NCBI RefSeq assembly: GCF_054482595.1
Contig: NZ_CM137008.1
DNA: 64,000 nucleotides
Reading direction: 5' to 3' (one strand)
Within the stretch, counting starts at the first letter, position 1. The number at the start of each line of letters is the position of its first letter. Positions 7,627 through 57,322 of this stretch are shown here, one piece after another. A model generated the notes under the pieces. It did no database searches, was not told the DNA's origin, and was given only the letters and a program-made list of their open reading frames with translations. Both the position numbers and the translations under genes were made by a program.

Positions 7627-7824
7627 ATGAAAAGCGTGGTTGACAACACATCGAAATATCCTGACTGGAGTAAACGCGATGATATTAAAGCGAAACTGAA
7701 AGTTGAACTTATTCTGCTTCTACACAAGCATAAGTTCCCGCCAGTAGCGAATGATGATGTTTATATGGGTGTGCTGGCACAGGTAGAGAATTTTAAAGAA
7801 CATCATATGAGTGCTTTAAATTAA
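7627..7824 (+). pseudogene. 65-aa ORF, possible C-terminal remnant of a displaced restriction-system gene (hypothesis only)
   Basis: Short ORF upstream of symE in the position occupied by hsd genes in K-12. The motif KRDDIKAKLKVELILLLHKHKFPPV resembles my recollection of type I HsdR C-terminal tails. Unverified. Confidence 0.25.
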
Positions 7825-7943
7825 TCATGAAGGCTGGATACACTTTGTTATCCGGCCATTGTGAATTAATGTTAATTTTTCTTCCAAATCTTTCCAATAA
7901 CGCTTTTATTATTTTCTATTTTTAGCTGGACTTTCCCTGTATT

Positions 7944-7963
7944 TACTGATGATATATCCAGAT
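7944..7963 (+). promoter_or_regulatory. LexA (SOS) box-like CTG-N10-CAG element upstream of symE
   Basis: TACTGATGATATATCCAGAT read directly about 78 bp upstream of the symE ATG; symE is a known SOS-induced gene. Confidence 0.5.
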
Positions 7964-7984
7964 ATTTAGCGCGGTGCGGATGTG

Positions 7985-8065
7985 CGCCAACACACCCGCA
8001 CCGCTCATCACAATCACTATTTTCAAGGAATAGCAGTTATGACTGACACGCATTCTATTGCACAA
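7985..8065 (-). ncRNA. symR: Expected position of SymR antisense sRNA (type I antitoxin) overlapping the symE 5' end; approximate coordinates
   Basis: Placed from the known symE/SymR arrangement, not from detected promoter or terminator signals. A 9-bp inverted repeat GCGGTGCGG/CCGCACCGC lies at 7971-8004. Confidence 0.3.
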
Positions 8066-8380
8066 CCGTTCGAAGCAGAAGTCTCCCCGGCAAATAACCG
8101 TCAATTAACCGTGAGTTATGCGAGCCGCTACCCGGATTGCAGCCGTATTCCCGCCATCACCCTGAAAGGTCAGTGGCTGGAAGCCGCCGGTTTTGCCACC
8201 GGCACAGCGGTAGATGTCAAAGTGATGGAAGGCTGTATTGTCCTCACAGCCCAACCACCCGCCGCCGAAGAGAGCGAACTGATGCAGTCGCTGCGCCAGG
8301 TGTGCAAGCTGTCGGCGCGTAAACAAAAGCAGATACAGGAATTTATTGGGGTGATTGCGGGTAAACAAAAAGTTGCCTGA
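8039..8380 (+). CDS. symE: SOS-induced toxin SymE (type I toxin-antitoxin), 113 aa
   Basis: Internal ATG at 8039 of ORF 7982-8380 gives [33 protein letters not shown]..., matching SymE. Confidence 0.85.
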
Positions 8381-8388
8381 TACATTGA

Positions 8389-8419
8389 CCCGGTAGCACC
8401 AGTGCTACCGGGTATTATT
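8389..8419 (+). terminator. Hairpin plus T-rich tail between convergent symE and the GmrSD-like gene
   Basis: cccggtagca-ccag-tgctaccggg followed by tattatt, read directly. Confidence 0.5.
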
Positions 8420-8426
8420 CGCCGCG

Positions 8427-10520
8427 TTATACCAACGCGCTCTCCATCTGTTTTTCAAATGCCTGACGAATTAATCCCATAATGTAAGGAAGTTGTGCGA
8501 GGTCGCTGAAACAAATTTCCACATCACCATTGCCCCATCGCCCAACATTTGTCACATCTTTGGCAATACCTTTCGGATCGACCAGTTCATGAAACTGCAT
8601 ATTAAGCGACAATCGCAGTCGGCTTTTTTGCGGCACAACATCAACAAAATTCGTTTCAGCTTTAAACGCAATATATAGCTTCAATACTTCCTGCGTGATC
8701 CCTGCGTCCAGGCGCATAACTTCATCGCGAAGATGATCGAATAACACCCGGCTATGCGAACCATCAGCAAGAAAAGGATAATCACTCAGGCTGTAACTGG
8801 TTTTGTTTTCAGGCTGCCCCCGATAAACAGCTAAAACCTCTTCAGAAAGAGAAGGCGCTTGCCAGACCTGAATCGCGAGATCGGCCAGACGATCGGCTCG
8901 GGCGTGAATGGCGGCTTCATCCCATTTTTCGCACTGTCCAAGACCGATATTCAAATAGAGCGGGCTATGCTTAAAGCCGTCTTCAATATCGCGTTTTTCC
9001 GCGAAAGGTCTGTCACTGTAGCGGGAGTTATAGCGCGTTAATGTGAGATTCCCCAACGTATGCAACAGTTCTTTATGAATGCGTTGCCAGTCACTTCCCA
9101 GCTCTTCACGCCATTTAGCCGACAAATTTTCGTTCTGCGGCATAATATGCTCAATCGTAAACTCTTCCACGCGCTCTCTGCGTTTATCGTTTTCCAGTCG
9201 TCGTAACCAGTAGCTGCGACTACGGAAGTTATAGAGATCGCGAACTTTTAATTCCCGTTTAAATTCATCATCGTTGGGGAAACGACGATATGAAGGTAGA
9301 TTCAAAAAATGTACCTGAATACTTTCCAGATAATTTTCTTTATTAATAACTTTATAAAAAGTGGCAAATGTCTTGTTCAAAGAATTTGTCGGAATTGCAC
9401 ATACTGCACGGCGGAAAACATAAGATTCAATTAAACGAATTATGCTCAGAAAATCTTCGTGAGACAAAACGCCATTTTTATAGTCATGATAAAGCGCCAG
9501 TAAGAAAGGATACGCCACATCGACCTTTAACTCGCGCAAATCCTGAAAAGCCGTAGCAAGCGATTTGTCACTTTCTTTTCCCAATGCCATTGCACAGTAA
9601 TACTCCGCGTAGATATGAATATCTTCAACCAGCCGATCTACGCCTTTTTCAGCAACACTCTGGCTGCGGGCATGGAGTTTAAATGCCTCATAGACTTCAT
9701 CTGTCCGAGGGATCTCCCCCGTTTTTACCGTCAGATAATGACGCATAAAACTGTCAAAATATTCGCTGTAACCTTGCTGACCAAAGGCGACTTCCATTGG
9801 ACGCCAGTGATCTTCATACAATCGGGTTTGATGCTCTGGTTCGAGGCCCATCAGAATAAAATTGCGCACCAGATCGGCCTGACTTAACGCCTTACCGGTG
9901 GAGTTCATACTTTCAAAAATCAGTTGCGGATTATCCTGACCACGATTAAGCGCCACATCGACAATTAATAACTTTGCTAACCCACGACATAAGGGGATCA
10001 AGTCATCACCGAGTTTGGCAATTTGTTCATCAAAGAAAGTAAAGTTTTCCATTATTCGATGGGAATAGTTTTCTGGCATTGGTCTTTGTTTTATTAACGC
10101 CAGTAAACTGTCTTTATCAGTCTCGGTCAGCAGTAATTTAAAACCTTTCTCGCCGGACTCATAAGGATTGAGCAAATAATAATTACGCAATTTCATTGCC
10201 GAAAAGCCATCAAAAACTTCGTCTTCGCCAAGATGGCGCGATAAAGCCTCAATCAGCAACATTGCGGTCGTCAGCCGCTGCTGACCATCAATGACCAGCA
10301 ACGGAGAAATACCAGAAACCTGATACAATCCCTGCTCTATATAAACAACCGAACCGATAAAATGCGCTGATATATCGTCACGCTTTCCTGCACGAATGAT
10401 GTCGTCCCAAAGTTGCCGACATTGTTGTTCTGTCCATGAATAAGTCCGTTGATAAATGGGAATAACAAACTGCTGCGAACGTTTTAAAAAATCGAGTAAG
10501 CGAGCTTCTGTAGCTTTCAT
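8427..10520 (-). CDS. DUF262 + DUF1524 (GmrSD-family) putative Type IV modification-dependent restriction endonuclease, 697 aa
   Basis: N-terminal DUF262/ParB-like motifs IPIYQRTYSW and VIDGQQRLTT. C-terminal His-Me finger/DUF1524-like motifs FTIEHIMPQ, GNLTL and YNS. Confidence 0.7.
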   Translation of the reverse strand: MKATEARLLDFLKRSQQFVIPIYQRTYSWTEQQCRQLWDDIIRAGKRDDISAHFIGSVVYIEQGLYQVSGISPLLVIDGQQRLTTAMLLIEALSRHLGEDEVFDGFSAMKLRNYYLLNPYESGEKGFKLLLTETDKDSLLALIKQRPMPENYSHRIMENFTFFDEQIAKLGDDLIPLCRGLAKLLIVDVALNRGQDNPQLIFESMNSTGKALSQADLVRNFILMGLEPEHQTRLYEDHWRPMEVAFGQQGYSEYFDSFMRHYLTVKTGEIPRTDEVYEAFKLHARSQSVAEKGVDRLVEDIHIYAEYYCAMALGKESDKSLATAFQDLRELKVDVAYPFLLALYHDYKNGVLSHEDFLSIIRLIESYVFRRAVCAIPTNSLNKTFATFYKVINKENYLESIQVHFLNLPSYRRFPNDDEFKRELKVRDLYNFRSRSYWLRRLENDKRRERVEEFTIEHIMPQNENLSAKWREELGSDWQRIHKELLHTLGNLTLTRYNSRYSDRPFAEKRDIEDGFKHSPLYLNIGLGQCEKWDEAAIHARADRLADLAIQVWQAPSLSEEVLAVYRGQPENKTSYSLSDYPFLADGSHSRVLFDHLRDEVMRLDAGITQEVLKLYIAFKAETNFVDVVPQKSRLRLSLNMQFHELVDPKGIAKDVTNVGRWGNGDVEICFSDLAQLPYIMGLIRQAFEKQMESALV

Positions 10521-12370: not shown

Positions 12371-12487
12371 TTTCGAATTAGTGGCGAGGCCCCTGATTTC
12401 CTCTCACGAATCGCCTGTGACTCGTTTTATCTTTGCAGGGGCATCGCCACGTTCCAGCATGGCTTAGGCAAAGTGTGCTTTGTTCAT

Positions 12488-12518
12488 ACCGGATGCGGCG
12501 TGAACGCCTTATCCGGCT
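12488..12518. repeat. REP element (ccggatgcggcgtgaacgccttatccgg)
   Basis: Imperfect palindrome of the canonical E. coli REP type; a near-identical copy is at 36431-36465. Confidence 0.6.
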
Positions 12519-12554
12519 TACAAATCGCGCAAATTCAATAGATTGCAGAGGTAA

Positions 12555-12585
12555 TGTAGGTCTGATAAGCGTAGCACATCAGGCA
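12555..12585. repeat. REP element (tgtaggtctgataagcgtagcacatcaggca), second member of a BIME-like pair
   Basis: REP-type palindrome adjacent to the previous one between convergent yjiR and rpnD. Confidence 0.5.
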
Positions 12586-12611
12586 GCTTTGCGTTTGTCA
12601 TCAGTCTCTGA

Positions 12612-13556
12612 TTAGTACTCGATCCATGGATCGCGCTTGCTTTCAGGCAAGGGTTGCTCTAATGCCTGCATTTGCTCTGCCGAAAGTCCAGTATATCGTT
12701 GTATCCATTCAGGATCCGCACCGTTCTGCAAAAGCAATCTAAGGAGGCGTTGTTCCCCTTCTTCTTTCCCCTTTTCCATCCCTAACAGCCATCCATCATT
12801 ATGAATTCGCTCTGCAATCGTCATTATTCGCTCCCTGTGTTGTGGCATTCGACGGGTAAGTTCACTGATAAACTCATTAAAACGCGCTTCATCGCCAGTC
12901 AGTAAAATGTAATTTAACAGCGCGGTTATCTGGCTGTCATTAGCGCACCCTGTAACCAGTAATATTACCAGTTGATCAATAAGCCCCATTAGATCGCGCT
13001 GGCGAATATGCTTTTGGATCAACTCCAACAGGGCGACTCTGCGGTGCTGCACAATCTCGTCGTCTGGCACGACAGTGACATCCACCAGCGGGAACGCTGC
13101 AGTATAAACTTTCCGTGCAGTAGTCGGGTCGGCAAATTCGTCCAGCCAGCACAGGGACCAGGGATAAGGACTACGGCTACCGTGATAAAACAGCATCGGG
13201 ATGACCAGCGGTAGCAACCGGCGTTTATCATGCTCTATATGGCGCTGCATCACTGCCATGGTATAGCGCATCAGGCGAAAGGCCATATGAATATCCTCAC
13301 GGCTCTGATGTTCAATCACCACATAGATATAGCCATCGCCTTCCCGGGTCTTTACCGACCACAGAATATCGGAGTGTAGCGCCCGCAATTTTTCATCGAC
13401 AAAGCTGGCGGATTCCAGTTTTAAGCTGTCGAGATCGCACAGTTCACGTAAATCTTTGGGTAAGTGGATCTCCATAAAATCCCGCGCGGTGTCAGGGTGC
13501 ATGAGAAAAGATTTAAATAATGCGTCATGCGGCGTGCTGGTCGTGAAGTTTGTCAT
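12612..13556 (-). CDS. rpnD: Rpn-family recombination-promoting nuclease (YhgA-like PD-(D/E)XK), 314 aa, apparently intact
   Basis: [36 protein letters not shown]... is typical of the Rpn/YhgA family; single uninterrupted ORF. Confidence 0.75.
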
Positions 13557-14022
13557 GGCGATCCGTCACCTGTTGATAAGATGGCCCGACTTTAGCGACT
13601 AACAAAACCATTCTCACCCGGCAATTTCCCGTTCCCCGAGGCGCTTTCCAGGCTATTTTTGTTCGTCTGCAAACGATACATTTTTCCGGAAACAGGCTCG
13701 CGTTTTACATTTCCTGTACCCGGCAGATATTCCCCTTTCCACCGCGCTCTTTTGATTAACCGCAAATTTTAATTACACTTAAGGTGTATATTTTCTATGC
13801 AACCCATCAATTCAAGAGGTGTAATGTACTGATGACTATTTGTAATCGTTATACATTCTGACCCGAAGTCAGAAGGTATTTCTCTGTCTGTGTGTTCACA
13901 GGCAGTGTGGTTGATTACATGAAATTCAGTACATTTGTCCTTCTCGCCTGCCTTTCGTCATTACCGACGGTATTGAATTTCGTTTTCCCCGTTGGGGTTC
14001 TCCGGACAAGGAGTTGTTTGTT

Positions 14023-15255
14023 ATGCCACGTTTTTTTGCCCGCCATGCCGCCACGCTGTTTTTCCCGATGGCGTTGATTTTGTATGACTTTGCCGCCTAT
14101 CTTTCGACGGACCTGATCCAGCCAGGGATCATTAATGTGGTCCGTGATTTTAATGCCGATGTCAGTCTGGCCCCGGCTGCCGTCAGTCTCTATCTCGCTG
14201 GAGGCATGGCATTGCAGTGGCTGCTGGGGCCGCTTTCCGACAGGATTGGCCGCAGGCCAGTGCTGATTACCGGGGCGCTCATTTTTACCCTTGCCTGCGC
14301 CGCGACAATGTTCACAACGTCTATGACACAGTTTCTTATCGCGCGTGCAATTCAGGGCACCAGTATCTGTTTTATTGCTACCGTTGGTTATGTCACGGTG
14401 CAGGAGGCGTTCGGACAGACAAAAGGGATCAAGTTGATGGCGATTATCACCTCCATCGTACTGATTGCGCCGATTATTGGCCCGCTTTCCGGCGCAGCTC
14501 TGATGCACTTTGTGCACTGGAAAGTCCTTTTTGCCATCATTGCGGTTATGGGTTTTATCTCATTTGTTGGCTTACTGCTGGCGATGCCAGAGACGGTGAA
14601 GCGCGGCGCGGTTCCATTTAGCGCCAAAAGCGTCTTGCGCGATTTTCGTAATGTCTTTTGCAATCGGCTGTTCCTCTTTGGCGCAGCAACCATCTCTTTA
14701 AGCTATATCCCAATGATGAGTTGGGTGGCTGTCTCGCCGGTGATCCTGATTGACGCAGGCGGCTTAACGACCTCGCAGTTCGCCTGGACACAGGTTCCGG
14801 TGTTCGGCGCGGTGATTGTCGCGAATGCCATCGTGGCGCGTTTCGTTAAAGATCCGACCGAACCGCGCTTTATCTGGCGTGCCGTACCCATTCAACTGGT
14901 TGGCCTCGCGCTGTTGATTATCGGCAATCTGCTGTCACCGCACGTCTGGCTGTGGTCGGTGCTGGGCACCAGTTTGTATGCTTTCGGGATTGGTTTGATC
15001 TTCCCGACCTTATTCCGCTTTACGCTTTTTTCCAATAACTTACCGAAAGGGACCGTCTCCGCATCGCTGAATATGGTGATCCTGATGGTGATGTCTGTCT
15101 CGGTCGAAATCGGCCGCTGGCTGTGGTTTAACGGCGGTCGCTTGCCGTTTCATCTGTTAGCCGTCGTGGCGGGCGTTATCGTCGTTTTCACCCTGGCAGG
15201 ATTGCTCAATCGCGTGCGCCAACATCAGGCTGCCGAGCTGGCGGAGGAGCGGTGA
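14023..15255 (+). CDS. mdtM: MFS multidrug efflux transporter MdtM, 410 aa
   Basis: 12-TM MFS-like protein. Start is taken at the ATG at 14023, preceded by GGAG; the ORF track used an upstream TTG. Confidence 0.9.
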
Positions 15256-15295
15256 TTTTTGCGCGATCTTGCCGTCAGGCTCTATTCTTAACGTT

Positions 15296-16576
15296 ATGAA
15301 TAAACTCATTGAACTCAGACGCGCCAAAATGTTGGCGCTCTCTTTACTGCTTATCGCCGCTGCTACCTTTGTCGTTACGCTGTTTTTGCCGCCCAATTTT
15401 TGGGTGAGCGGTGTGAAGGCGATTGCCGAAGCAGCGATGGTCGGCGCGCTGGCGGACTGGTTTGCGGTGGTGGCGCTGTTTCGCCGCGTGCCGATTCCGA
15501 TCATTTCTCGTCATACAGCGATTATCCCGCGTAATAAAGACCGGATTGGCGAAAATCTCGGCCAGTTCGTGCAGGAAAAATTTCTTGATACTCAATCCCT
15601 GGTGGCATTGATTCGACGCCACGAACCGGCGTTGTTGATTGGCAACTGGTTTAGTCAGCCAGAAAACGCCCGCCGCGTTGGTCAGCATCTGTTGCAGATC
15701 ATGAGCGGTTTTCTCGAATTAACTGATGATGCGCGTATTCAGCGCCTGCTTAAGCGCGCGGTCCATCGGGCGATTGATAAGGTCGATCTTTCCGGCACCA
15801 GTGCGTTGATGCTGGAGAGTATGACCAAAAACGATCGTCATCAGGTGCTGCTGGATACGCTGATCGCACAGTTGATCGCCCTTCTCCAGCGCGATAAATC
15901 GCGCAAGTTTATCGCCCAGCAAATTGTTCGCTGGCTGGAGAGTGAGCATCCACTGAAAGCCAAAATTCTCCCCACCGAATGGCTGGGCGAACATAGCGCG
16001 GAGTTGGTTTCTGACGCGGTGAATTCTTTGCTTGATGATATCAGCCGCGATCGTGCGCATCAGATCCGCCATGCGTTTGATCGCGCCACTTTTGCCCTGA
16101 TCGACAAGCTGAAAAACGATCCGGAAATGGCAGCGCGAGCCGATGCCGTAAAAAGTTATCTGAAAGAAGATGAAGCTTTTAACCGCTATCTCAGTGAATT
16201 GTGGGGGGATTTACGGGAATGGCTGAAAGCGGATATCGACAGTGAAGATTCTCGTGTGAAAGAACGTATCGCGCGGGCGGGTCAATGGTTTGGCGAAACG
16301 TTAATTGCCGATGATGCCTTGCGGGCGTCGTTAAATGGTCATCTGGAACAAGCCGCGCACCGCGTCGCGCCTGAGTTTTCCGCATTCCTGACGCGCCACA
16401 TCAGCGATACGGTAAAAAGCTGGGATGCCCGGGATATGTCGCGGCAAATAGAGTTAAATATCGGCAAAGATCTGCAGTTTATTCGTGTCAACGGTACGCT
16501 GGTTGGCGGTTGTATTGGGCTAATTTTATATTTGCTGTCGCAGCTCCCGGCCTTGTTCCCCCTCGGCAATTTTTAG
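15296..16576 (+). CDS. yjiN: DUF445 inner membrane protein YjiN, 426 aa
   Basis: ORF 15269-16576; start taken at the internal ATG giving [22 protein letters not shown]... Confidence 0.8.
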
Positions 16577-16691
16577 AAATCCATGAAAAACTAAGTGGCT
16601 AACCGCGAGAGAGATCAAATAAACCATACTAAAAGAATGGTAATAATGTGGCCTCTTTTCATTATCTCCCGTGGTACGGGGAAGGAAAATC

Positions 16692-18616
<1,925 letters not shown>

Positions 18617-18620
<4 letters not shown>

Positions 18621-18883
18621 AAGAGTTTTTATTTTTATTTCACTCCACGGTCGGCGTCATACAAACCCGCAAGGCATTGCAGGCAGCGGGCATGACTTTT
18701 CGCGTCAGCGATATTCCCCGTGATTTACGCGGCGGCTGCGGGTTATGCATTTGGCTGACCTGTCCCCCCGGCGAGGAAATACAATGGGTGATCCCTGGGC
18801 AAACCGAAGCGATATATTGCCAGCAGGGCAGCGACTGGCAGTGCGTGGTGCATTACGATGCAGAAGCGTCAACCAGGCAATAG
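18617..18883 (+). CDS. Small conserved hypothetical protein (88 aa), translationally coupled to yjiL
   Basis: ATG overlaps the yjiL stop (ATGA), suggesting an operon. The DUF3343-like assignment is tentative. Confidence 0.5.
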
Positions 18884-19195
18884 GATCTTTAAATATACCA
18901 ACCGGATAATTGGCTGCGCATAATCCTGCATGAAGGAAGTTGTATTAAATATCTCACCTGCCATGAAATATTTCCCATCCACAAAATGAGCGATTTTTGA
19001 TAGCACCTTACTATTTTACGTCTAAAATACAAAATACATTTTATTATACTTAAACCCATAATTATGCATAGAGAAATAAAATGATTACCGGGTGAGATAA
19101 TGATAAAAGATAAGTTTCTGTGCGAAGCTTATCTTTACCCATCCCCCTGATTATTTTAGATTTAGAAGAACATTTCACAATTCAAGGATAGAAAT

Positions 19196-30288: not shown

Positions 30289-30972
30289 ATGACACAACAA
30301 GGGGATGCTGTAGCCGGGGAGCTGGCGACAGAAAAAGTGGGCATTAAAGGGTATCTGGCTTTTTTTCTCACCATAATCTTTTTTTCCGGTGTTTTTTCCG
30401 GAACAGACAGCTGGTGGCGCGTTTTTGATTTTTCCGTTCTGAACGGATCGTTTGGGCAACTGCCTGGTGCGAACGGAGCCACCACCTCATTTCGCGGCGC
30501 GGGTGGTGCGGGGGCTAAAGATGGCTTTCTCTTTGCGCTGGAGCTGGCACCGTCAGTCATTCTCTCTCTGGGGATTATTTCAATTACCGATGGTCTTGGT
30601 GGATTACGCGCCGCGCAGCAGTTAATGACACCTGTGCTAAAACCGTTGTTGGGTATTCCAGGGATCTGTTCGCTGGCGCTGATCGCTAACTTGCAAAACA
30701 CTGATGCCGCCGCCGGTATGACCAAAGAGCTGGCGCAGGAAGGTGAAATTACCGAACGCGATAAAGTGATTTTCGCCGCATATCAAACCAGCGGTAGCGC
30801 CATCATCACCAACTACTTCTCTTCCGGCGTCGCGGTGTTCGCCTTTCTGGGTACGTCCGTAATCGTACCTTTAGCCGTCATCCTGGTGTTTAAATTTGTC
30901 GGAGCCAACATTTTGCGCGTCTGGCTTAACTTCGAAGAACGTCGCAACCCAACGCAAGGAGCGCAAGCATGA
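30289..30972 (+). CDS. yjiH: Inner membrane protein YjiH (nucleoside-recognition-domain family), ~227 aa
   Basis: ORF 30277-30972; start probably at the ATG at 30289 (MTQQGDAV...), preceded by GGGGA. Confidence 0.8.
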   Translation: MTQQGDAVAGELATEKVGIKGYLAFFLTIIFFSGVFSGTDSWWRVFDFSVLNGSFGQLPGANGATTSFRGAGGAGAKDGFLFALELAPSVILSLGIISITDGLGGLRAAQQLMTPVLKPLLGIPGICSLALIANLQNTDAAAGMTKELAQEGEITERDKVIFAAYQTSGSAIITNYFSSGVAVFAFLGTSVIVPLAVILVFKFVGANILRVWLNFEERRNPTQGAQA

Positions 30973-31430
30973 CAACTCAGGTCCGCAAAAACGTCATGGA
31001 TATGTTTATCGATGGCGCGCGCCGTGGCTTTACTATCGCCACGACCAACCTGCTGCCAAACGTGGTGATGGCGTTTGTCATCATTCAGGCGCTGAAAATA
31101 ACCGGCCTGCTCGACTGGGTGGGGCATATCTGTGAACCCGTAATGGCGCTGTGGGGATTACCCGGTGAAGCGGCAACCGTCCTTTTAGCCGCATTAATGA
31201 GTATGGGCGGCGCAGTCGGTGTTGCCGCCAGTCTGGCAACCGCTGGCGCATTAACCGGTCACGATGTCACCGTTTTACTGCCCGCGATGTATTTAATGGG
31301 CAACCCGGTGCAAAATGTCGGTCGCTGCCTGGGGACAGCCGAAGTGAATGCCAAATATTACCCGCATATCATTACGGTCTGCGTGATTAACGCATTGCTG
31401 TCGATCTGGGTTATGCAGCTTATTGTTTAA
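30969..31430 (+). CDS. yjiG: Inner membrane protein YjiG (SpmB-like), 153 aa
   Basis: Overlaps the yjiH stop by 4 bp (ATGA), indicating translational coupling. Confidence 0.8.
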   Translation: MTTQVRKNVMDMFIDGARRGFTIATTNLLPNVVMAFVIIQALKITGLLDWVGHICEPVMALWGLPGEAATVLLAALMSMGGAVGVAASLATAGALTGHDVTVLLPAMYLMGNPVQNVGRCLGTAEVNAKYYPHIITVCVINALLSIWVMQLIV

Positions 31431-31442
31431 CAAGGAGTTACC

Positions 31443-32615
31443 ATGATTGATTATACCGCAGCCGGTTTTACCCTGCTGCAGGGAGCGCATTTGTATGCGC
31501 CGGAAGATCGGGGAATTTGCGATGTCCTCGTCGCTAACGGCAAAATTATCGCCGTTGCCAGCAATATCCCTTCTGACATTGTACCGGACTGCACGGTTGT
31601 CGATCTCAGCGGGCAGATCCTCTGCCCAGGTTTTATTGATCAACACGTCCATTTGATTGGCGGTGGCGGCGAAGCAGGTCCCACGACGCGCACGCCGGAA
31701 GTGGCGCTAAGTCGCCTGACGGAAGCGGGCGTCACGTCAGTGGTTGGTCTGCTGGGCACCGACTCTATCTCTCGCCACCCGGAATCCCTGCTCGCCAAGA
31801 CCCGTGCGCTCAATGAAGAAGGCATCAGCGCCTGGATGCTGACCGGCGCTTATCATGTCCCTTCCCGCACTATTACGGGTTCCGTGGAAAAAGACGTGGC
31901 GATTATCGATCGTGTGATTGGTGTGAAATGCGCCATCTCTGATCACCGTTCTGCCGCACCGGACGTTTATCACCTGGCTAATATGGCGGCAGAATCCCGC
32001 GTTGGCGGTTTGCTCGGCAGTAAACCTGGCGTCACCGTGTTCCACATGGGCGACAGTAAAAAGGCGTTACAGCCTATCTATGACCTGCTGGAAAACTGCG
32101 ATGTGCCGATCAGCAAGCTGCTGCCGACCCACGTTAACCGCAACGTACCGTTGTTTGAGCAGGCGCTGGAGTTCGCGCGCAAAGGCGGCACCATCGATAT
32201 CACCAGCAGCATTGACGAACCGGTCGCCCCTGCCGAAGGTATTGCCCGCGCCGTTCAGGCGGGTATTCCGCTGGCACGCGTCACCCTCAGCTCCGACGGC
32301 AACGGTAGCCAGCCGTTCTTCGATGATGAAGGGAATTTAACCCATATCGGCGTTGCAGGTTTTGAAACGTTGCTGGAAACCGTGCAGGTGCTGGTTAAAG
32401 ACTATGATTTCAGTATCAGCGATGCCCTGCGCCCGCTCACCAGTAGCGTAGCCGGTTTCCTTAACCTGAGCGGGAAAGGCGAAATTCTGCCAGGCAATGA
32501 CGCAGACTTACTGGTCATGACGCCAGAATTGCGCATTGAGCAGGTATACGCTCGCGGCAAACTGATGGTCAAAGACGGCAAAGCCTGCGTGAAAGGAACG
32601 TTTGAAACGGCATAA
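31443..32615 (+). CDS. iadA: Isoaspartyl dipeptidase IadA, 390 aa
   Basis: Amidohydrolase-superfamily metal-binding HxH motif (FIDQHVHLIGGGGEAG); sequence recognised as IadA. Confidence 0.9.
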   Translation: MIDYTAAGFTLLQGAHLYAPEDRGICDVLVANGKIIAVASNIPSDIVPDCTVVDLSGQILCPGFIDQHVHLIGGGGEAGPTTRTPEVALSRLTEAGVTSVVGLLGTDSISRHPESLLAKTRALNEEGISAWMLTGAYHVPSRTITGSVEKDVAIIDRVIGVKCAISDHRSAAPDVYHLANMAAESRVGGLLGSKPGVTVFHMGDSKKALQPIYDLLENCDVPISKLLPTHVNRNVPLFEQALEFARKGGTIDITSSIDEPVAPAEGIARAVQAGIPLARVTLSSDGNGSQPFFDDEGNLTHIGVAGFETLLETVQVLVKDYDFSISDALRPLTSSVAGFLNLSGKGEILPGNDADLLVMTPELRIEQVYARGKLMVKDGKACVKGTFETA

Positions 32616-32620
32616 ACGGT

Positions 32621-32667
32621 TGTCAGCCGCCCTAATGGACGTAGAATGCCCGCAAGGGCGGCTGACA
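32621..32667. other. 13-bp perfect inverted repeat (tgtcagccgccct ... agggcggctgaca) between iadA and hypT; possible terminator
   Basis: Read directly; the 21-nt loop is larger than in a typical intrinsic terminator. Confidence 0.4.
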
Positions 32668-32679
32668 GAGTAAAACGTA

Positions 32680-33591
32680 ATGGATGACTGTGGTGCGGTT
32701 TTGCATAATATTGAAACTAAATGGCTTTATGATTTTCTGACCCTGGAAAAATGCCGCAATTTTTCCCAGGCGGCAGTTAGTCGCAACGTCTCGCAACCGG
32801 CATTCAGCCGCCGCATCCGTGCACTGGAACAGGCGATTGGCGTTGAATTGTTTAACCGCCAGGTGACGCCGCTGCAACTCTCAGAACAAGGGAAAATCTT
32901 CCATTCGCAGATCCGCCATCTGTTGCAACAGTTAGAAAGTAACCTTGCAGAGCTGCGTGGCGGCAGCGATTACGCGCAACGTAAAATCAAGATAGCCGCT
33001 GCACACTCTCTTTCCCTCGGTCTGTTACCGTCCATTATCAGCCAGATGCCGCCGCTCTTTACCTGGGCGATTGAAGCTATTGATGTCGATGAAGCAGTCG
33101 ATAAACTGCGCGAAGGGCAAAGTGACTGTATTTTTTCCTTTCACGACGAAGATTTGCTGGAAGCGCCGTTTGACCACATTCGCTTATTTGAATCTCAATT
33201 GTTCCCCGTTTGCGCCAGTGACGAACACGGAGAAGCACTTTTTAACCTCGCGCAGCCACACTTTCCGTTACTGAATTACAGCCGCAACTCCTACATGGGG
33301 CGATTGATTAATCGCACCCTGACGCGCCACAGTGAGTTAAGTTTCAGCACCTTTTTTGTCTCTTCGATGAGCGAGCTTTTAAAGCAGGTTGCCCTCGACG
33401 GCTGTGGGATTGCCTGGCTGCCGGAATACGCCATCCAACAAGAAATTCGCAGCGGGCAGCTCGTTGTACTGAATCGGGACGAACTGGTGATCCCGATTCA
33501 GGCCTATGCATACCGGATGAATACCCGCATGAATCCCGTTGCCGAACGCTTCTGGCGTGAACTGCGCGAGCTGGAGATTGTGCTTAGCTGA
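32680..33591 (+). CDS. hypT: LysR-family transcriptional regulator HypT (YjiE), 303 aa
   Basis: N-terminal LysR-type HTH ([29 protein letters not shown]); sequence recognised. Confidence 0.85.
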
Positions 33592-33976
33592 CATTCTCAA
33601 GCGTCGCACTGCGCCAACCGCCATTATCCCAGACCAGATCAAACGTTAGCGGTTCATCGTCGTGGTACAGCATTATCTCAAGGCTGATCGCCAGCGTGTG
33701 GCAGTACGCTTCTTTCAAATTAACCTGCAACGCCGCAATCCGTGGCTCATGAAATAACAGTGCAGAACGCAGCTGACGGCAATACCAGCTCTGGAGATGT
33801 TTGTCGCTCTGGTTATGCAGTTGCCACTCGGGCATGCCTGAAACAAGTAATGACGGTAATGCCGAATGAGGAGAATTAAAAAGTGTGAGGAGATCGCTGC
33901 ATACCGATTTACGCAGCGATGACGTTTTATTGCCTGAAATTTCAGGTAAAACAGCCTGAAGTGATTGGCGCATCAT
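33584..33976 (-). CDS. iraD: Anti-adaptor protein IraD (RssB inhibitor), 130 aa
   Basis: Translation from the internal ATG: [23 protein letters not shown]...; its 3' end overlaps the hypT 3' end by 8 bp (convergent). Confidence 0.8.
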
Positions 33977-34648
33977 TTTGCGCACTCCTGACGTTTAGCA
34001 ACATATGCGGCTTGCCCTGAACACCGGGCACCACTGTATTGATGCTCATTTTCCATAGCCATTCCCTTTTGTTCATTACATCCATGTCAGTCTGAGACAG
34101 GCCTGAATCCTGTCAGCAAAGTATAAAACCTTACTTGCCTATGAATATCTACTGACTTTTCAGGAAAAAAGTCATGATTTGATAAAAATCATCAAACTCA
34201 AAAAAAAACCGCTAGTATATTCTGAATATTCCGAATAGTTACGTAGATGAAAATACTTGTCACCGCTGCTACTTAATTCCGGTGGGAAATTATTTATTTC
34301 CGCATAATCATCTATGTATTATTTGAAACAATTAGTTTGTAAATAATATAAATTAATAACATATCAAATACATCAAAAATACCATTCACAGGCATTATTA
34401 ATATAGACCTCAACATAGCAACATCAAATTCCAATTAGTAATAAGATATGCTTTTAAATTGCATGCAAATAATTTTAAATGAGCGTTTTTTGATACTTTA
34501 GAGTGTTTCCCACCCTTTAATATCACTGTGTAGAGTTGATATCACTACAACAGAAACATGCATGTCATTTGTTTACTTCTCTTTTTACTACAGAAAAATT
34601 TATCTATTTTTCTAAACATCAGTGAAATACTCATAAAAGGTAACTATT

Positions 34649-35479
34649 ATGTCTATGCCATTAAGCAATACCCTTCAGAGTCAAATTATTACAGATAATC
34701 ACTTCCTTCATCACCCAAAAGTCGACAATGAGTTAACACGTCGATATGAATATGCACGCCTGGATACGGAAAATATCTATCTTCTGCCTCTTGCTCGTGG
34801 CAATAACCATAATTACGATGGAAAAAGCGTTGTCGAAATTAGAAAACTTAATATTGGCAAACAGTCCTGGCCATTTAATTATGTGACAGATACATGCAGA
34901 GAATTCAATGGTATTACAACAACAGGACGTATGCTCTATCGAAACTTGAAAATCACCTCAGCTTTAGACGAAATATATGGTGGTATATGTAAAAAGGCGC
35001 ATGCTGCTACAGAGTTAGCAGAAGGTTTACGGCTAAATTTATTTATGAAGAGCCCTTTCGATCCTGTTGAGGACTATACAGTTCATGAAATAACATTAGG
35101 CCCTGGTTGCAATGTTCCTGGTTACGCCGGAACCACGATAGGATATATTTCAACCCTTCCAGTTTCTCAGGCAAAAAGATGGACCAATGAGCAGCCAAGA
35201 ATTGATATCTATATTGATCAGATAATAACTGTCTCAGGGGTAGCAAATTCTTCCGGATTCGCCCTTGCCGCATTACTTAATGCTAATATTGAGATGGGAA
35301 ATGACCCAATCATTGGTATAGAAGCCTATCCTGGTACCGCGGAGATCCATGCAAAAATGGGATATAAAGTTATCCCCGGTGATGAAGATGCGCCACTCAA
35401 ACGCATGACTCTGCAACCGTCATCTCTTCCAGAACTGTTTGAATTAAAAAATGGTGAATGGAATTATATTGGTAAATAG
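34649..35479 (+). CDS. yjiC: Uncharacterised protein YjiC, 276 aa
   Basis: ORF-track ORF downstream of a ~660-bp AT-rich intergenic region. Confidence 0.65.
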   Translation: MSMPLSNTLQSQIITDNHFLHHPKVDNELTRRYEYARLDTENIYLLPLARGNNHNYDGKSVVEIRKLNIGKQSWPFNYVTDTCREFNGITTTGRMLYRNLKITSALDEIYGGICKKAHAATELAEGLRLNLFMKSPFDPVEDYTVHEITLGPGCNVPGYAGTTIGYISTLPVSQAKRWTNEQPRIDIYIDQIITVSGVANSSGFALAALLNANIEMGNDPIIGIEAYPGTAEIHAKMGYKVIPGDEDAPLKRMTLQPSSLPELFELKNGEWNYIGK

Positions 35480-35580
35480 CCACTGAGAAGAATGAGTACT
35501 AATATTCAGGTTATATAGATATTTAAACAATACCCTGCAATTTACAAAGTAATACTCATTGCGACTTCTTAATTTAAGAA

Positions 35581-35607
35581 AGCGCAAGGAACGTTTACCC
35601 TTGCGCT
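35581..35607. terminator. Hairpin (agcgcaagg-aacgtttac-ccttgcgct) between convergent yjiC and uxuR
   Basis: Read directly. Confidence 0.5.
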
Positions 35608-35619
35608 TATTATAATAAG

Positions 35620-36393
35620 TCAGGCGTCGACTTTATCCAGCGGCCATGAATCAAACAGATAGCCGTCAAAATAAATATCGTCAACGTTCGAGAATTCCAG
35701 CAGACGTTGCTTAACGTTTTCCAGATGCTGCCACATTGCCAGCTTCGCCGCTCGGGCATCTTTTTTGATTAACGCGGCGAGGATCTGTTTGTGATCGCCC
35801 AACCACTCTTTGCGATACAGGCTGTCATCCAGATGGCTGTGCAACTGGATCCACATTGGATTGTTTTCCCGCCACTGCCAGGACTGACGGAATAACTCCA
35901 CCAGCATGCTGTTATGCGTTGCTTCGGCAATGGCGAGATGGAACTGCATATCACCGCTTTCGCTGCTACCCGGCGCGCTGGAAGCCAGTTCACGCTCTTC
36001 CAGTTGCAATGCCTGACGCATTTTGACGATATCTTCGCGGGTAGCCTGCAGGGCGGCAAACTCGGCGATGTTACTTTCCAGTAACTGACGCGCCTGTAAC
36101 AGCTCAAAAGGACCCGCATCATTGCAGACGTTGGCATCCGGACTGTCTGTGTTGTGGCTGCCTGAGCTATCAAGAACATAGATACCGGCACCCCGGCGCA
36201 CTTCCACCAGCCCTTTGATCTCCAGCATGATCAGCGCTTCACGTACCACCGTCCGCGTGACATCAAGCATTTCTGCAATTTCACGCTCCGGCGGCAGCCG
36301 TTCGCCAGGATTGTACGGCGTCTTTATGATCAGATCGCGGATCATCGCCCCGACTTCCTGGTAAGGTCTTTGCGCAGAGGTGGCAGATTTCAT
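35620..36393 (-). CDS. uxuR: GntR/FadR-family repressor UxuR, 257 aa
   Basis: Sequence recognised; N-terminal winged-helix motif. Confidence 0.9.
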   Translation of the reverse strand: MKSATSAQRPYQEVGAMIRDLIIKTPYNPGERLPPEREIAEMLDVTRTVVREALIMLEIKGLVEVRRGAGIYVLDSSGSHNTDSPDANVCNDAGPFELLQARQLLESNIAEFAALQATREDIVKMRQALQLEERELASSAPGSSESGDMQFHLAIAEATHNSMLVELFRQSWQWRENNPMWIQLHSHLDDSLYRKEWLGDHKQILAALIKKDARAAKLAMWQHLENVKQRLLEFSNVDDIYFDGYLFDSWPLDKVDA

Positions 36394-36430
36394 GGTGTTG
36401 TGTCCGTTAGGTGCGGTTAATCAAATTTTT

Positions 36431-36465
36431 GCCGGATGCGGCGTGAACGCCTTATCCGGCCTACA
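36431..36465. repeat. REP element in the uxuB-uxuR intergenic region
   Basis: gccggatgcggcgtgaacgccttatccggcctaca, near-identical to the copy at 12488. Confidence 0.6.
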
Positions 36466-36607
36466 ACGGGCAATTTTACGGCCCCCATTAATCTCAAACT
36501 ATACCATTAGCACTGGAAGTTGGCACGTACAGGTGGGCAAAAAAACGAAAACTGGTCAACCAAATATCAGTTTGATTGACCAGTAAGTCTGTAGGGTAAT
36601 CAGTTAG

Positions 36608-38068
36608 TTACAGCGCAGCCACACACTCGCGCGCACCGCGTTCGCACAGCTGCTGATATGCCGCAGTCACCGCGCCAACAAAGTCGGCATTCTGCGGCAG
36701 ATCATCGGCAAAAATACCGCTCAGGCCCAGCAGCGCTTTCACGCGGTCTGCGCCCTGATACTGCGCGTTAATCTTCTGGAACTCGGCCAGCATCGGGTCG
36801 ACCACGTCAATGGCATTACCCTGCTCATCCACGCCCTGGGTGTAACGCATCCAGCCAGCCACGCCCAGCGCCAGGTGACGCCAGCTGCCGCCGTTTTGCA
36901 GGTGCAGACGCACCGGATCCAACAGACGCTGCGGTAACTTCTGGCTGCCGTCCATCGCAATCTGCCAGGTACGGTGACGCAGAGACGGGTTGCTGAAACG
37001 CTCGATCAGCAGCGTCGCATAGGCGTTCAGGTCCGTACCTTCCGGCATCGACAGCGTTGGCGCTTGTTCCTGCATCATCAGGGCAAAGGCCGCTTTGCGA
37101 TAATCCGGGTTAGTCATGGTGTCGGCAATAGTTTCATAGCCGCCGAGGTAACCGAGGTATGCCAGGAAAGAGTGGCTGCCGTTCAGCATACGCAGTTTCA
37201 TCATTTCGAACGGCACAACGTCTGCAACGAACTGTGCGCCCACTTTATCCCAGTCCGGACGACCATTAACGAAGTTATCTTCAATCACCCACTGACGGAA
37301 CGGTTCGCAGGCAATGGCGCACGGGTCGTAAACACCCAGCTGGTCAGCAATTTCCTGTAAGGTTTCTGGCGTCGCCGCCGGAACGATGCGGTCAACCATG
37401 GTGCACGGGAAGGTGACGTTCTCTTCAATCCATGCCGCCAGCTGCGGATCACGCGCCTGAGCCAGCCCCAGAACCGCGACCTTTGCCACATGACCGTTCT
37501 CACGCACGTTGTCGCAGGACATGACAGTAAACGCTTTCAGCCCTTTTTCACGACGCAGACGCAAGGCTTCGACGATGTAACCAATCGCGGACTTCGGCGC
37601 AGTCGGGTTTTCCAGATCGTGCTTGATCAGCGGGTTATTGAGATCCAGTTGACCGCTTGCCGCATCAGCGCAGTAGCCTTTTTCCGTGACCGTTAGAGAG
37701 ACAATCGCCGTTTGCGGACGCGCCATCGCGTTGAGAATACCTTCGCAGCCGTCGATTTCCGGATGCAGCGCTTCTTTCATCGAACCGATAATTTTCAGCT
37801 CGGTGCTTTCCGCGCCTTTTTCCGCCACGGTGTACAGCAGTTGCTGTTTTTTCAGGTTTTCGATCAGCACGCGGTCGTTGCCTGGCATCAGGTTAACTTC
37901 GCAGATGCCCCAGTCGCTGTCGGTGCTTTCCAGCAGATGATGGGTATACAGCGCCTGGTGCGCGCGGTGAAACGCCCCGCAACCGAGATGCACAATGCGT
38001 GATTCCAGACGAGAATGATCCCATGACGGGCGGGCAACCGGCAGATTGCTGTCAACAATAGTAGTCAT
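36608..38068 (-). CDS. uxuB: D-mannonate oxidoreductase UxuB, 486 aa
   Basis: Sequence recognised; Rossmann-type N-terminus (VHLGCGAFHRAHQ). Confidence 0.9.
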   Translation of the reverse strand: MTTIVDSNLPVARPSWDHSRLESRIVHLGCGAFHRAHQALYTHHLLESTDSDWGICEVNLMPGNDRVLIENLKKQQLLYTVAEKGAESTELKIIGSMKEALHPEIDGCEGILNAMARPQTAIVSLTVTEKGYCADAASGQLDLNNPLIKHDLENPTAPKSAIGYIVEALRLRREKGLKAFTVMSCDNVRENGHVAKVAVLGLAQARDPQLAAWIEENVTFPCTMVDRIVPAATPETLQEIADQLGVYDPCAIACEPFRQWVIEDNFVNGRPDWDKVGAQFVADVVPFEMMKLRMLNGSHSFLAYLGYLGGYETIADTMTNPDYRKAAFALMMQEQAPTLSMPEGTDLNAYATLLIERFSNPSLRHRTWQIAMDGSQKLPQRLLDPVRLHLQNGGSWRHLALGVAGWMRYTQGVDEQGNAIDVVDPMLAEFQKINAQYQGADRVKALLGLSGIFADDLPQNADFVGAVTAAYQQLCERGARECVAAL

Positions 38069-38148
38069 CGTAAACTCCAGAATCCGTCTTCAGAGAGTGA
38101 CGGCAAGGAAGAAGGAACCGGCACGGCGCGCAGCCATGCCGGTGGGTA

Positions 38149-39333
38149 TTAACGGCTAAAGAAAGCGCGCTGGATCGCCAGTTCGACACCGCGAACTTCG
38201 GCCAGGCCTTTCAGACGACCAATTGCGGAGTAACCAGGGTTGGTTTTCTTCTTCAGGTCGTCCAGCATCTGATGACCGTGGTCCGGACGCATCGGGATCA
38301 GGTCTTCTTTGCCTTCCGCTTTACGACGGTGTTCTTCTTCAACAATCGCTTTCACCACTTCGTACATATCAACGTCACCGTTCAGGTGCGCCGCTTCGTG
38401 GAAGGTTTTCGGGTTATCTTCACGCATGGTGGAGCGCAGATGGGTGAAATAAATACGCGGACCGAACTGCTTGATCATATCAACCAGATCGTTGTCAGCA
38501 CGCACGCCGTAGGAACCGGTGCACATGGTGAAACCGTTCGCCATGCTGTTTACGGTATCAACCATCCACTGCATATCTTCAATGGTGGAAACAATGCGCG
38601 GCAGGCCGAGGATCGGGCGCGGCGGATCGTCCGGGTGAACCGCCATACGCACGCCAACTTCTTCAGCAACTGGAATAATCGCTTTCAGGAAGACAGCAAA
38701 GTTTTCGCGCAGTTTGGCTTTGTCGATATCTTTGTACAGCTCCAGGTGCTTACGGAACTGGTCGAGGGTATACCCTTCTTCCGCGCCCGGCAGACCGGCA
38801 ATGATGTTACGCGTCAGACGCGCTTTGTCTTCGTCGCTCATAGTGGCGAAGCGTTCAGCTGCCTGAGCAATTTCTTCTTCGGTGTAATCCGCTTCCGCGC
38901 CTGGACGTTTCAGGATATGCATTTCGAATGCAGCGAATTCGATCTGGTCGAAGCGCAGAGCTTTGGAGCCGTCTGGCAGCACGTATTCGAGGTCAGTACG
39001 GGTCCAGTCGAGCACCGGCATGAAGTTGTAGCACACGGTGCGAATGCCGCACTGCGCCAGGTTGCGCAGAGTCTGCTGATAGTTAGCGATCCACTGCTCA
39101 TAGTTGCCAGTGTGGGTTTTGATATCTTCGTGAATTGGTACGCTTTCTACGACAGACCACACCAGGCCTGCGTCTTCAACGATCGCCTTGCGTTTGAGGA
39201 TCTCTTCTACGGACCATACTTCGCCGTTCGGGATATGGTGCAGCGCGGTAACCACGCCAGTTGCGCCCGCCTGACGGACATCAGCTAAAGAAACCGGATC
39301 GTTTGGGCCGTACCAGCGCCAGGTCTGTTCCAT
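38149..39333 (-). CDS. uxuA: Mannonate dehydratase UxuA, 394 aa
   Basis: Translation from the internal ATG ([23 protein letters not shown]...) with AGAGGA SD. The ORF-track extension to 39369 is rejected. Confidence 0.9.
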
Positions 39334-39495
39334 GATTTTTCCTCTTTCACATAGTGGGTTCCACAGCAAAGAGACGCGGAACCCTGGAGTTGTTTAGGTA
39401 TCCGGATGAACAACCAGACCGCAGCCGTGGCGTTGCATCGGATGAGATGGCGTATAAGTTCTACCTTTTGGTAAGACATGTCAACCCGAATTCTA

Positions 39496-39509
39496 AAATT
39501 GGTTAACCA
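39496..39509. promoter_or_regulatory. Palindromic TGGT-N-ACCA operator-like site (AAATTGGTTAACCA) in the uxuA-gntP divergent control region
   Basis: Matches the FadR-subfamily GntR operator pattern used by UxuR/ExuR; read directly. Confidence 0.45.
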
Positions 39510-39603
39510 CATCACAAGAATTTCACTCTCATGGTTGTTGCTGCAAATTGCAGCAAAGGGTAATCGATGGTTATTGATCAGAGGATGTGACATTCATCGC
39601 AAC

Positions 39604-39619
39604 AATGGTTGACCAATTT
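39604..39619. promoter_or_regulatory. Second operator-like palindrome (AATGGTTGACCAATTT) upstream of gntP
   Basis: Same half-site pattern; read directly. Confidence 0.45.
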
Positions 39620-39672
39620 ACATAACATGTCGCCCAAAATAACAACGGTTCAACCAGGTAAGGTAAAACGTT

Positions 39673-41016
39673 ATGCATGTGCTTAACATTCTCTGGGTGG
39701 TATTCGGCATTGGTCTGATGCTGGTACTGAATTTGAAGTTCAAAATCAATTCAATGGTGGCTTTGTTGGTGGCGGCGCTGTCCGTCGGGATGCTGGCGGG
39801 CATGGATTTGATGTCGCTGCTGCACACCATGAAAGCGGGCTTCGGCAACACGCTGGGGGAACTGGCTATCATCGTGGTGTTCGGTGCGGTCATCGGTAAA
39901 TTGATGGTCGACTCCGGCGCGGCTCACCAGATAGCGCATACGCTGCTGGCGCGTCTCGGTCTGCGCTATGTACAGCTGTCAGTGATTATCATCGGCCTGA
40001 TTTTTGGTCTGGCGATGTTCTATGAAGTGGCCTTTATCATGTTAGCGCCGCTGGTTATTGTCATTGCCGCCGAAGCTAAAATTCCGTTCCTGAAACTGGC
40101 GATCCCGGCAGTAGCAGCTGCCACTACCGCACATTCACTGTTCCCACCGCAGCCGGGTCCGGTGGCGCTGGTGAATGCTTATGGCGCAGATATGGGGATG
40201 GTTTATATCTATGGCGTACTGGTGACGATCCCAAGTGTAATCTGCGCAGGTCTGATCCTGCCGAAGTTCCTCGGCAATCTTGAGCGCCCAACGCCATCAT
40301 TCCTGAAAGCAGATCAACCGGTAGATATGAACAATCTGCCCTCTTTCGGCGTTTCGATTCTGGTGCCGCTGATCCCGGCGATCATTATGATCTCTACCAC
40401 CATCGCCAATATCTGGCTGGTAAAAGATACCCCTGCCTGGGAAGTGGTTAACTTTATTGGTTCCTCGCCGATTGCGATGTTTATTGCGATGGTGGTTGCA
40501 TTCGTACTCTTTGGCACCGCACGTGGTCATGACATGCAGTGGGTGATGAACGCTTTTGAAAGTGCGGTGAAAAGCATTGCAATGGTGATTCTGATCATCG
40601 GTGCGGGTGGCGTGCTGAAGCAAACTATCATCGACACCGGCATTGGCGACACCATCGGCATGTTGATGTCCCACGGCAATATCTCGCCCTACATTATGGC
40701 ATGGCTGATCACTGTGCTAATTCGTCTGGCGACGGGTCAGGGTGTCGTTTCGGCGATGACCGCCGCCGGGATTATCAGTGCTGCAATCCTTGATCCAGCA
40801 ACTGGTCAGCTGGTTGGCGTGAATCCGGCGTTGCTGGTGCTGGCGACGGCTGCGGGTTCCAACACCCTCACGCACATTAACGATGCATCTTTCTGGTTGT
40901 TCAAAGGTTACTTTGACCTGTCGGTAAAAGACACGTTGAAAACCTGGGGACTGCTGGAGCTGGTCAACTCCGTGGTTGGGCTGATTATTGTGTTGATTAT
41001 TAGCATGGTAGCGTAA
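39673..41016 (+). CDS. gntP: Fructuronate/gluconate transporter GntP, 447 aa
   Basis: Sequence recognised; GntP-family permease. Confidence 0.9.
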
Positions 41017-41025
41017 AAGAACACC

Positions 41026-41051
41026 AGAGCCTGCCAATGGCAGGCTCTGTT
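41026..41051. terminator. Bidirectional hairpin terminator between convergent gntP and fimH
   Basis: cagagcctgcc-aatg-ggcaggctctg read directly. Confidence 0.6.
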
Positions 41052-41079
41052 CGGATTGTCGGCAAAGTGCGCTTTGTTT

Positions 41080-41122
41080 ATGCCAGATGCGACGCTGACG
41101 CGTCTTATCTGGCCTACAAAGG
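41080..41122. repeat. REP-like palindrome (atgccagatgcgacgctgacgcgtcttatctggcctacaaagg)
   Basis: Read directly. Confidence 0.5.
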
Positions 41123-57320: not shown

Positions 57321-57322
57321 TA

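Follow-up and report, generated by a model that had tools for sequence, protein, structure and literature searches.

The closest described counterparts of the elements considered here are Escherichia coli's repetitive extragenic palindromic (REP) units and the bacterial interspersed mosaic elements (BIMEs). K-12 holds 584 REPs, and the transposase TnpA_REP binds and cuts REP hairpins flanked by the tetranucleotide GTAG; both GTAG and a mismatch in the stem are required, and binding in vitro is abolished when GTAG is mutated (PMC3333891). A BIME-1 contains one z1 and one y unit in single copy, with a long, well-conserved L linker that often carries a site for integration host factor (IHF) (PMC3333891). 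IHF binds BIME-1 linkers, and BIMEs have been proposed to be non-autonomous mobile elements (PMC3333891, PMC2817692). REPs have also been described as local partial terminators and blocks to 3′ decay, in a context-dependent manner, with an effect between convergent genes that is possibly bidirectional (bioRxiv 10.64898/2026.03.23.713779). Below, we compare with these systems the REP units found in a 64,000-nucleotide stretch of an E. coli chromosome (RefSeq contig NZ_CM137008.1, referred to as "the window"), which extends from tsr to beyond the fim operon by way of yjiR, mdtM, iatD, kptA, uxuRBA and gntP.

Gene names and strands were taken from the RefSeq annotation of XH990 (NZ_CP019359.1), which is 99.98 % identical to the window over 47 kb. 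K-12 MG1655 covers most of the window, though inverted and with a number of strain-specific differences. The whole window was scanned with the Y and Z2 consensus sequences of Nunvar et al. 2010 (Table 1, PMC2817692) and with a Z1 reference unit that is independent of the window, that of the K-12 pitA/uspB BIME-1. The long unit is referred to as Z2 and the short one as Z1, following the same table and Ton-Hoang 2012 (PMC3333891). The scans retrieved exactly five REP units, two Y, two Z1 and one Z2, distributed over four loci. The units differ from the respective consensus or reference at 0-2 positions, and the chance level, estimated from 100 shuffles per pattern, was 0.00 matches for each of the Y, Z1 and Z2 patterns. 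An nhmmer profile built from the five window copies recovered all of them at E = 1e-11 to 6e-7, a search that is partly circular because the profile was made from the same copies; no further copy was found in the 64 kb below E = 1.

All five units fold into a hairpin with an internal mismatch. The Y and Z2 hairpins reach -18 to -22 kcal/mol on either strand (z = -3.8 to -6.3), while those of the Z1 units are weaker. Four of the five are clearly more stable than shuffled sequences on at least one strand, the exception being the Z1 unit at 12556-12585. The tetranucleotide is GTAG in three units (at 12556, 36464 and 41117) and a single-base variant in the two others (GTAA at 12521, ATAG at 29431). 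All five intact units are intergenic, lie 22-142 nt from a stop codon and are devoid of T tracts. Since none is found within 15 nt of a stop codon, the translation-coupled mechanism mentioned for REPs near stop codons (PMC12306157) is unlikely to operate here. The sequences are also highly repeated: of 5426 complete E. coli genomes, 5425 contain matches to a 100-nt element from the yjiR/rpnD spacer, with a median of at least 33 per genome. Rfam returned nothing at any of the REP junctions, and no ERIC/IRU or boxC-like element was found in the 64-kb window.

Thus, the five palindromes are almost certainly ordinary members of the E. coli REP family, and two of the four loci are BIME-1 elements, one intact and one decayed; no evidence counts against family membership. 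A sequence-only reading of this DNA had placed REP-like palindromes at yjiR/rpnD (two copies), at the junction of an "adhesin" gene (iatD) with kptA, at uxuB/uxuR and at gntP/fimH, between positions 12488 and 41122. All five are where it put them, the first of these positions falling in the first Y unit and the last just past the Z2 unit, and the pattern search against REP consensus sequences that it proposed gave the result described above. Four points need amendment, two of them concerning the make-up of the elements. The two copies at yjiR/rpnD do correspond to two units (Y and Z1), but both are components of one composite BIME-1, joined by an L linker. At iatD/kptA, the lone REP is a Z1 unit that belongs to a decayed BIME-1; as the latter extends into the kptA reading frame, the REP element at this junction is not strictly extragenic.

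The intact BIME-1 occupies positions 12467-12602 in the 241-bp spacer between the convergent genes yjiR (plus strand) and rpnD (minus strand). The two palindromes of this spacer form one mosaic, which consists of a flank, a Y unit, an L linker, a Z1 unit and a second flank. The left flank motif, GGCAAAGTGTGCTTTGTTCAT (12467-12487, plus strand), is supported by alignment, recurrence and predicted folding. Its 20-mer GCAAAGTGYGCTTTGTTYAT occurs again at 41062-41081 beside the Z2 unit (2 matches against 0.06 expected), and the motif is kept at both pitA/uspB and yjiR/rpnD of K-12. A 32-mer that includes it has a median of 8 matches per E. coli genome, which indicates that the flank belongs to the repeat and is not local sequence. 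In predicted folds it base-pairs with the nucleotides that come immediately after CTAC, giving a longer REP stem; we take it to be, possibly, the "A" motif of BIME nomenclature. The Y unit follows at 12487-12521 on the minus strand, with 2 mismatches to the published consensus, GTAA in place of GTAG and a hairpin of -18 to -19 kcal/mol (z = -3.8 to -4.5). The 34-nt L linker (12522-12555, plus strand) contains a 22-nt core, GCAAATTCAATAGATTGCAGAG, identical to that of the K-12 pitA/uspB BIME-1, and an IHF-like site, ATTCAATAGATTG, at 12533-12545, one mismatch away from the consensus WATCAANNNNTTR. The Z1 unit at 12556-12585 (plus strand) is inverted relative to Y and has 2 mismatches to the Z1 reference. 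It has decayed in that GGTCTG replaces GGCCTG and GCACAT replaces GCGCAT, and its hairpin (-9.5 and -7.1 kcal/mol, z about -1.6) cannot be told from those of shuffled sequences. Both the pitA/uspB BIME-1 and the kptA/iatD element keep the right flank motif GCTTTGCGTTTGTCATC (12586-12602, plus strand).

The whole mosaic aligns end to end with the BIME-1 of K-12 pitA/uspB, a gene pair that is likewise convergent. Inverse Y and Z1 units, a conserved L linker and single copy, the sequence features by which a BIME-1 is recognized, are all present at 12467-12602. In K-12 the yjiR/rpnD copy is more degenerate, though the flanking genes are ~96 % identical. The adjoining rpnD (12612-13556) is an intact open reading frame (ORF) of 314 codons here and a pseudogene in K-12 MG1655. 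A link between this Rpn nuclease gene and the adjoining BIME-1 was considered and set aside, the pitA/uspB BIME-1 having no such neighbour. Upstream of the BIME-1, the 3′ region of yjiR contains an imperfect long-range inverted repeat, GTGGCGAGGCCCCTG ... CAGGGGCATCGCCAC (12383-12451); K-12 does not preserve its pairing, which makes a conserved structure improbable.

The second BIME-1 lies in and beyond the 123-bp spacer between the convergent genes iatD (plus strand) and kptA (minus strand). Directly after the iatD stop codon there is a 12-bp stem-loop (29349-29378), recognized by reading the sequence and by folding, that is terminator-like but has short T tracts in both directions; a terminator scan left it unflagged because its T-run rule was not satisfied. 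All parts of the element itself read on the minus strand. The right flank motif ATGTAGCGTTTGTTATC (29385-29401) was identified by alignment with two BIME-1 copies and adjoins the Z1 unit (29402-29431), which has 2 mismatches to the reference, ATAG in place of GTAG and a hairpin of -13 to -17 kcal/mol. The L linker (29432-29465), assigned by BIME-1 alignment, contains an IHF-like site, ATTCAATATATTG, at 29442-29454 (one mismatch in the consensus scan), the kptA stop codon (29455-29457) and a 22-nt core with 2 differences from the pitA/uspB copy. Beyond it, only the outer arms of a Y unit, GCCGA/CTGGGGTAC, are left (29466-29479), ~20 nt of the central part having been lost, and a remnant of the left flank, TCGTTTAT, extends up to 29487 as judged by alignment to BIME-1 copies. 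Strain G6/7 has the same Y deletion and a flank nearer to the consensus (CCGTTCATGCCGG). Since a Z1 unit, an L linker, a Y remnant and both flanks are present, 29385-29487 is a second, decayed BIME-1.

Translation shows that the kptA frame enters this element and stops inside the L linker. The overlap with kptA is confined, as far as REP units are concerned, to the deleted Y remnant. The Y and flank remnants, together with the first adjoining codons of the L linker, encode the last 10 residues of KptA. This tail is absent from K-12, where KptA ends right after ...EFLEW. The annotated kptA gene measures 585 nt in this strain and 555 nt in K-12. K-12 homology starts exactly at 29487. Of 5426 complete E. 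coli genomes, 639 have the iatD-BIME-kptA junction; yjiJ directly abuts kptA in K-12 and strain 13E0780, and most other genomes match the kptA body only, from 29487. Compared with K-12, the interval 18827-29487 is a strain-variable block. Two of its genes are without K-12 counterpart, a pentapeptide-repeat gene (19196-21523) and iatD (24091-29331); yjiK-yjiJ, between these two genes, shares only ~81 % identity with K-12, whereas the flanks share 96-98 %.

Since the edge of K-12 homology coincides with the edge of the BIME-1, the element at 29385-29487 can be read as a recombination breakpoint of the iatD segment, in which case a REP/BIME rearrangement would have gained or lost the iatD block and rewritten the 3′ end of kptA. 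We regard this scenario as improbable. Whatever its origin, the tail means that ~12 % of complete E. coli genomes, those carrying iatD, have a KptA whose last 10 residues are encoded by a decayed BIME-1, a case in which, at the border of an accessory segment, repeat DNA has become part of a reading frame. BIMEs are reportedly a major source of intergenic polymorphism, as a 1997 title by Bachellier et al. has it. As this is already known, the kptA-tail BIME-1 at the edge of the iatD block is only a mildly unusual detail, new merely as an instance.

The two remaining REPs are solitary. At the tandem junction of uxuB and uxuR, both on the minus strand, a Y unit with 0 mismatches to the published consensus is located at 36430-36464 (minus strand; hairpin -21 kcal/mol). 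K-12 has the identical unit, with one differing position across the 231-nt alignment of the junction. Along the direction of transcription, the uxuB stop codon (36608) is followed by a terminator-like hairpin, a promoter-like site, the Y unit and the uxuR ATG (36393), with the uxuB stop 142 nt upstream of the REP and the uxuR start codon 36 nt downstream of it. The hairpin (36541-36584, minus strand) was flagged by the terminator scan and has a 14-bp stem followed by the T tract TTTTCGTTTTT. The candidate uxuR promoter (36498-36526, minus strand) is a σ70-like site with GTGCCA, a 17-nt spacer, TATAGT and an extended TG, predicted by a consensus scan that yielded 14 such sites in comparison with 11.8 expected from shuffles, i.e., no excess. 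No experimentally mapped uxuR promoter was found in two papers examined for it; uxuAB is described as an operon separate from uxuR (PMC5934670). As the candidate promoter is upstream of the REP, the Y unit would lie within the uxuR 5′ leader; most likely, judging by the order of these sequence features, it is part of this leader or of uxuAB read-through transcripts and does not mark the end of a transcription unit. Being perfect and probably in the leader, it could influence uxuR expression. Abutting the Y unit upstream of uxuR is AATCAAATTTTTG (36419-36431), which agrees perfectly with the IHF consensus; as there are five such matches in the window, it may be there by chance.

The Z2 unit is found in the 174-bp spacer between the convergent genes gntP (plus strand) and fimH (minus strand). 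It occupies 41081-41117 on the minus strand and agrees with the published Z2 consensus at 0 mismatches; K-12 has the identical unit, and the predicted hairpin is of -21 to -22 kcal/mol (z = -5.5 to -6.3). The plus-strand motif GGCAAAGTGCGCTTTGTTTAT (41061-41081), the same as the left flank motif of the yjiR/rpnD BIME-1, adjoins it. Eight nucleotides past the gntP stop codon there is an unrelated stem-loop (41025-41049) with 11 bp, 8 of them GC, recognized as an inverted repeat that folds; it is terminator-like in both directions and was flagged by the terminator scan on the minus strand only. K-12 has ~70 extra bases beside the REP (window 41047-41062 against positions 3839-3923 of the K-12 locus L002). 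They include a GC-rich palindromic element of ~56 nt, CCCCTCGCCCCTCCGGGGAGAGGGTTAGGGTGAGGGG, that is repeated elsewhere in E. coli genomes and that we presume to be the one called "boxC". The spacer has its long form in 2826 of 5426 genomes and its short form in the window.

REPs are thus present at three of eight convergent, one of 37 tandem and none of eight divergent junctions among the 53 annotated junctions of the window. The convergent bias is significant (one-sided Fisher p = 0.009; p = 0.015 when gaps of at least 40 bp are considered). Genome-wide, ~60 % of E. coli REPs are convergent, ~40 % tandem and ~1 % divergent, and 207 of 704 convergent spacers are REP-positive (bioRxiv 10.64898/2026.03.23.713779), a proportion from which three of eight is indistinguishable. 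The expectation per 64 kb is ~8 units, calculated from the 584 K-12 REPs, or ~5 loci, calculated from 355 annotated REP loci; the window has five units and one remnant at four loci. Both density and placement are typical of E. coli, and the repeat family is a known one. The sequence-only reading had called the palindromes ordinary for E. coli, and in this it agrees with the published genome-wide figures. Its statement that they are concentrated at convergent junctions holds for the bias just given but not for uxuB/uxuR, and its suggestion that they delimit transcription units is true only loosely, since stem-loops precede the REP after iatD and gntP and the REP before uxuR marks no end. The identification of the palindromes as REP-type was, in sum, correct but ordinary.

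How might such units function at these loci? From what is known of the family, they may affect the stability or termination of mRNA, bind IHF and be recognized by the transposase. REPs in general are non-autonomous repeats recognized and cut by the Y1 transposase TnpA_REP/RAYT (yafM), and persist where insertion is tolerated, i.e., on the downstream sides of genes, divergent promoter regions being almost free of them. Once transcribed, they form stable RNA hairpins that can hinder 3′-to-5′ exonucleolytic decay and cause partial termination or control read-through, and a hairpin between convergent genes can act both ways. At the DNA level, the L linker of a BIME-1 would offer a putative IHF site. 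For the minus-strand transcripts of fimH, kptA and rpnD, the REP hairpin is predicted to be the first or main stable structure past the stop codon; in gntP and iatD transcripts a separate stem-loop would come before it, and in uxuR transcripts the REP would be part of the leader.

Several observations speak against a functional role of this kind. No general effect of REPs on mRNA half-life is seen (bioRxiv 10.64898/2026.03.23.713779). At iatD and gntP a separate stem-loop is located between the stop codon and the REP, whose own contribution on that strand may therefore be small. The scan for the IHF consensus lacks specificity, with 95 matches against 82 expected in the window; since IHF-like matches occur at chance frequency, the IHF claim rests on L-linker homology and not on the motif. 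Finally, two of the REP units lack GTAG. As GTAG mutation abolishes TnpA_REP binding, the GTAA and ATAG copies are probably inert, although the mutation in the literature was a different one; by analogy, the transposase probably no longer accepts these copies or the deleted Y unit as substrates.

These observations can be taken further, and the REPs regarded as purely selfish or neutral relics that are found at 3′ ends and convergent junctions because they are harmless there and that have no regulatory role at any of the four loci. The decayed tetranucleotides, the weak Z1 hairpin at 12556-12585 and the ~20-nt deletion in a Y unit all fit such a view, as do the even more degenerate yjiR/rpnD copy of K-12 between genes that are ~96 % identical, presence/absence polymorphism (the iatD/kptA element in 639 of 5426 genomes being an example), the stem-loops already present after iatD and gntP, and the lack of a genome-wide half-life effect (bioRxiv 10.64898/2026.03.23.713779). 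Yet the Y unit at uxuB/uxuR and the Z2 unit at gntP/fimH are perfect consensus sequences, identical in K-12, and REP-flanked convergent pairs are more highly expressed, while tandem pairs are upstream-biased (bioRxiv 10.64898/2026.03.23.713779). We consider the absence of any function a real possibility, if not the favored one; it departs from the explanation that combines mobile origin with context-dependent hairpin effects solely in the amount of function allowed.

A main role at the level of DNA, with both BIME-1 L linkers binding IHF (and possibly other nucleoid proteins) and thus shaping topology at the ends of convergent units, appears rather doubtful. Both BIME-1s have kept the conserved L core and the IHF-like site, despite the decay of one Y unit, but at most two of the four loci would be accounted for, each IHF-like site is one mismatch off a consensus whose matches are at chance frequency in the window, and REP325 causes no measurable nucleoid compaction (bioRxiv 10.64898/2026.03.23.713779). 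That the palindromes are gene-specific intrinsic terminators or chance inverted repeats that belong to no repeat family has next to no probability, even though they are GC-rich intergenic hairpins downstream of genes: agreement with a family consensus over 30-37 nt at 0-2 mismatches and tens of recurrences per genome rule it out for practical purposes, and the units have no T tracts, the expected terminator positions being taken by unrelated stem-loops. We therefore retain the explanation that these are ordinary members of the REP family whose hairpins may act on RNA depending on context. Beyond annotation of the REP and BIME-1 elements as repeat features, this is of little importance, except as a warning for short-read assembly, primer design and recombineering that the spacers contain repeated sequence.

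Outside the REP loci, two further intervals of the window deserve a brief description. At 5535-10520, the "immigration control" region of K-12 (hsd/mcr/mrr) is replaced by other genes, namely a 3′-5′ exonuclease gene, an hsdR fragment and symE with the SymR antitoxin RNA (7968-8044, Rfam 91.7 bits), symR being the sole Rfam match in the window. The same interval includes a 697-codon ORF of the GmrSD/DUF262 type (8427-10520) that is split in the XH990 annotation. Past the nan genes, at 53800-64000 (annotated from locus L003), there is a defence-type cluster encoding a phosphorothioated-DNA-binding restriction endonuclease, a DEAD/DEAH helicase, a DNA methyltransferase and an SNF2-related protein.

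In comparison with the known systems, the window units share with the REP family an imperfect palindrome of 30-37 nt, an internal mismatch, high copy number and an intergenic position at gene 3′ ends; they differ in that the tetranucleotide is mutated in two copies and that a further Y unit is deleted internally and lies inside the kptA frame. BIME-1 elements, also called RIP or RIB elements, are matched at 12467-12602 by inverse Y and Z1 units, a 34-nt L linker with a conserved core and IHF-like site, and shared flanks, whereas the element at 29385-29487 is without a Y core and overlaps the 3′ end of kptA; both loci have one Y-L-Z1 each, in keeping with the single-copy nature of BIME-1. BIME-2 and atypical BIMEs, which are tandem Y-Z2 arrays and gyrase targets (e.g., REP325), have the Y and Z2 sequence types in common with the window, but the Y unit at 36430-36464 and the Z2 unit at 41081-41117 are solitary and at separate loci. 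Since they are neither paired nor in tandem with S linkers, the window contains no BIME-2. As for the REPtron and its RAYT (TnpA_REP, yafM), REPs of the window are of the substrate type that it recognizes (GTAG plus a stem mismatch), while the RAYT gene itself is not in the window; to our knowledge, rpnD, annotated as an Rpn-family nuclease gene, has no relation to RAYT. The repeats of the window thus match the described REP/BIME-1 system, which is already known.

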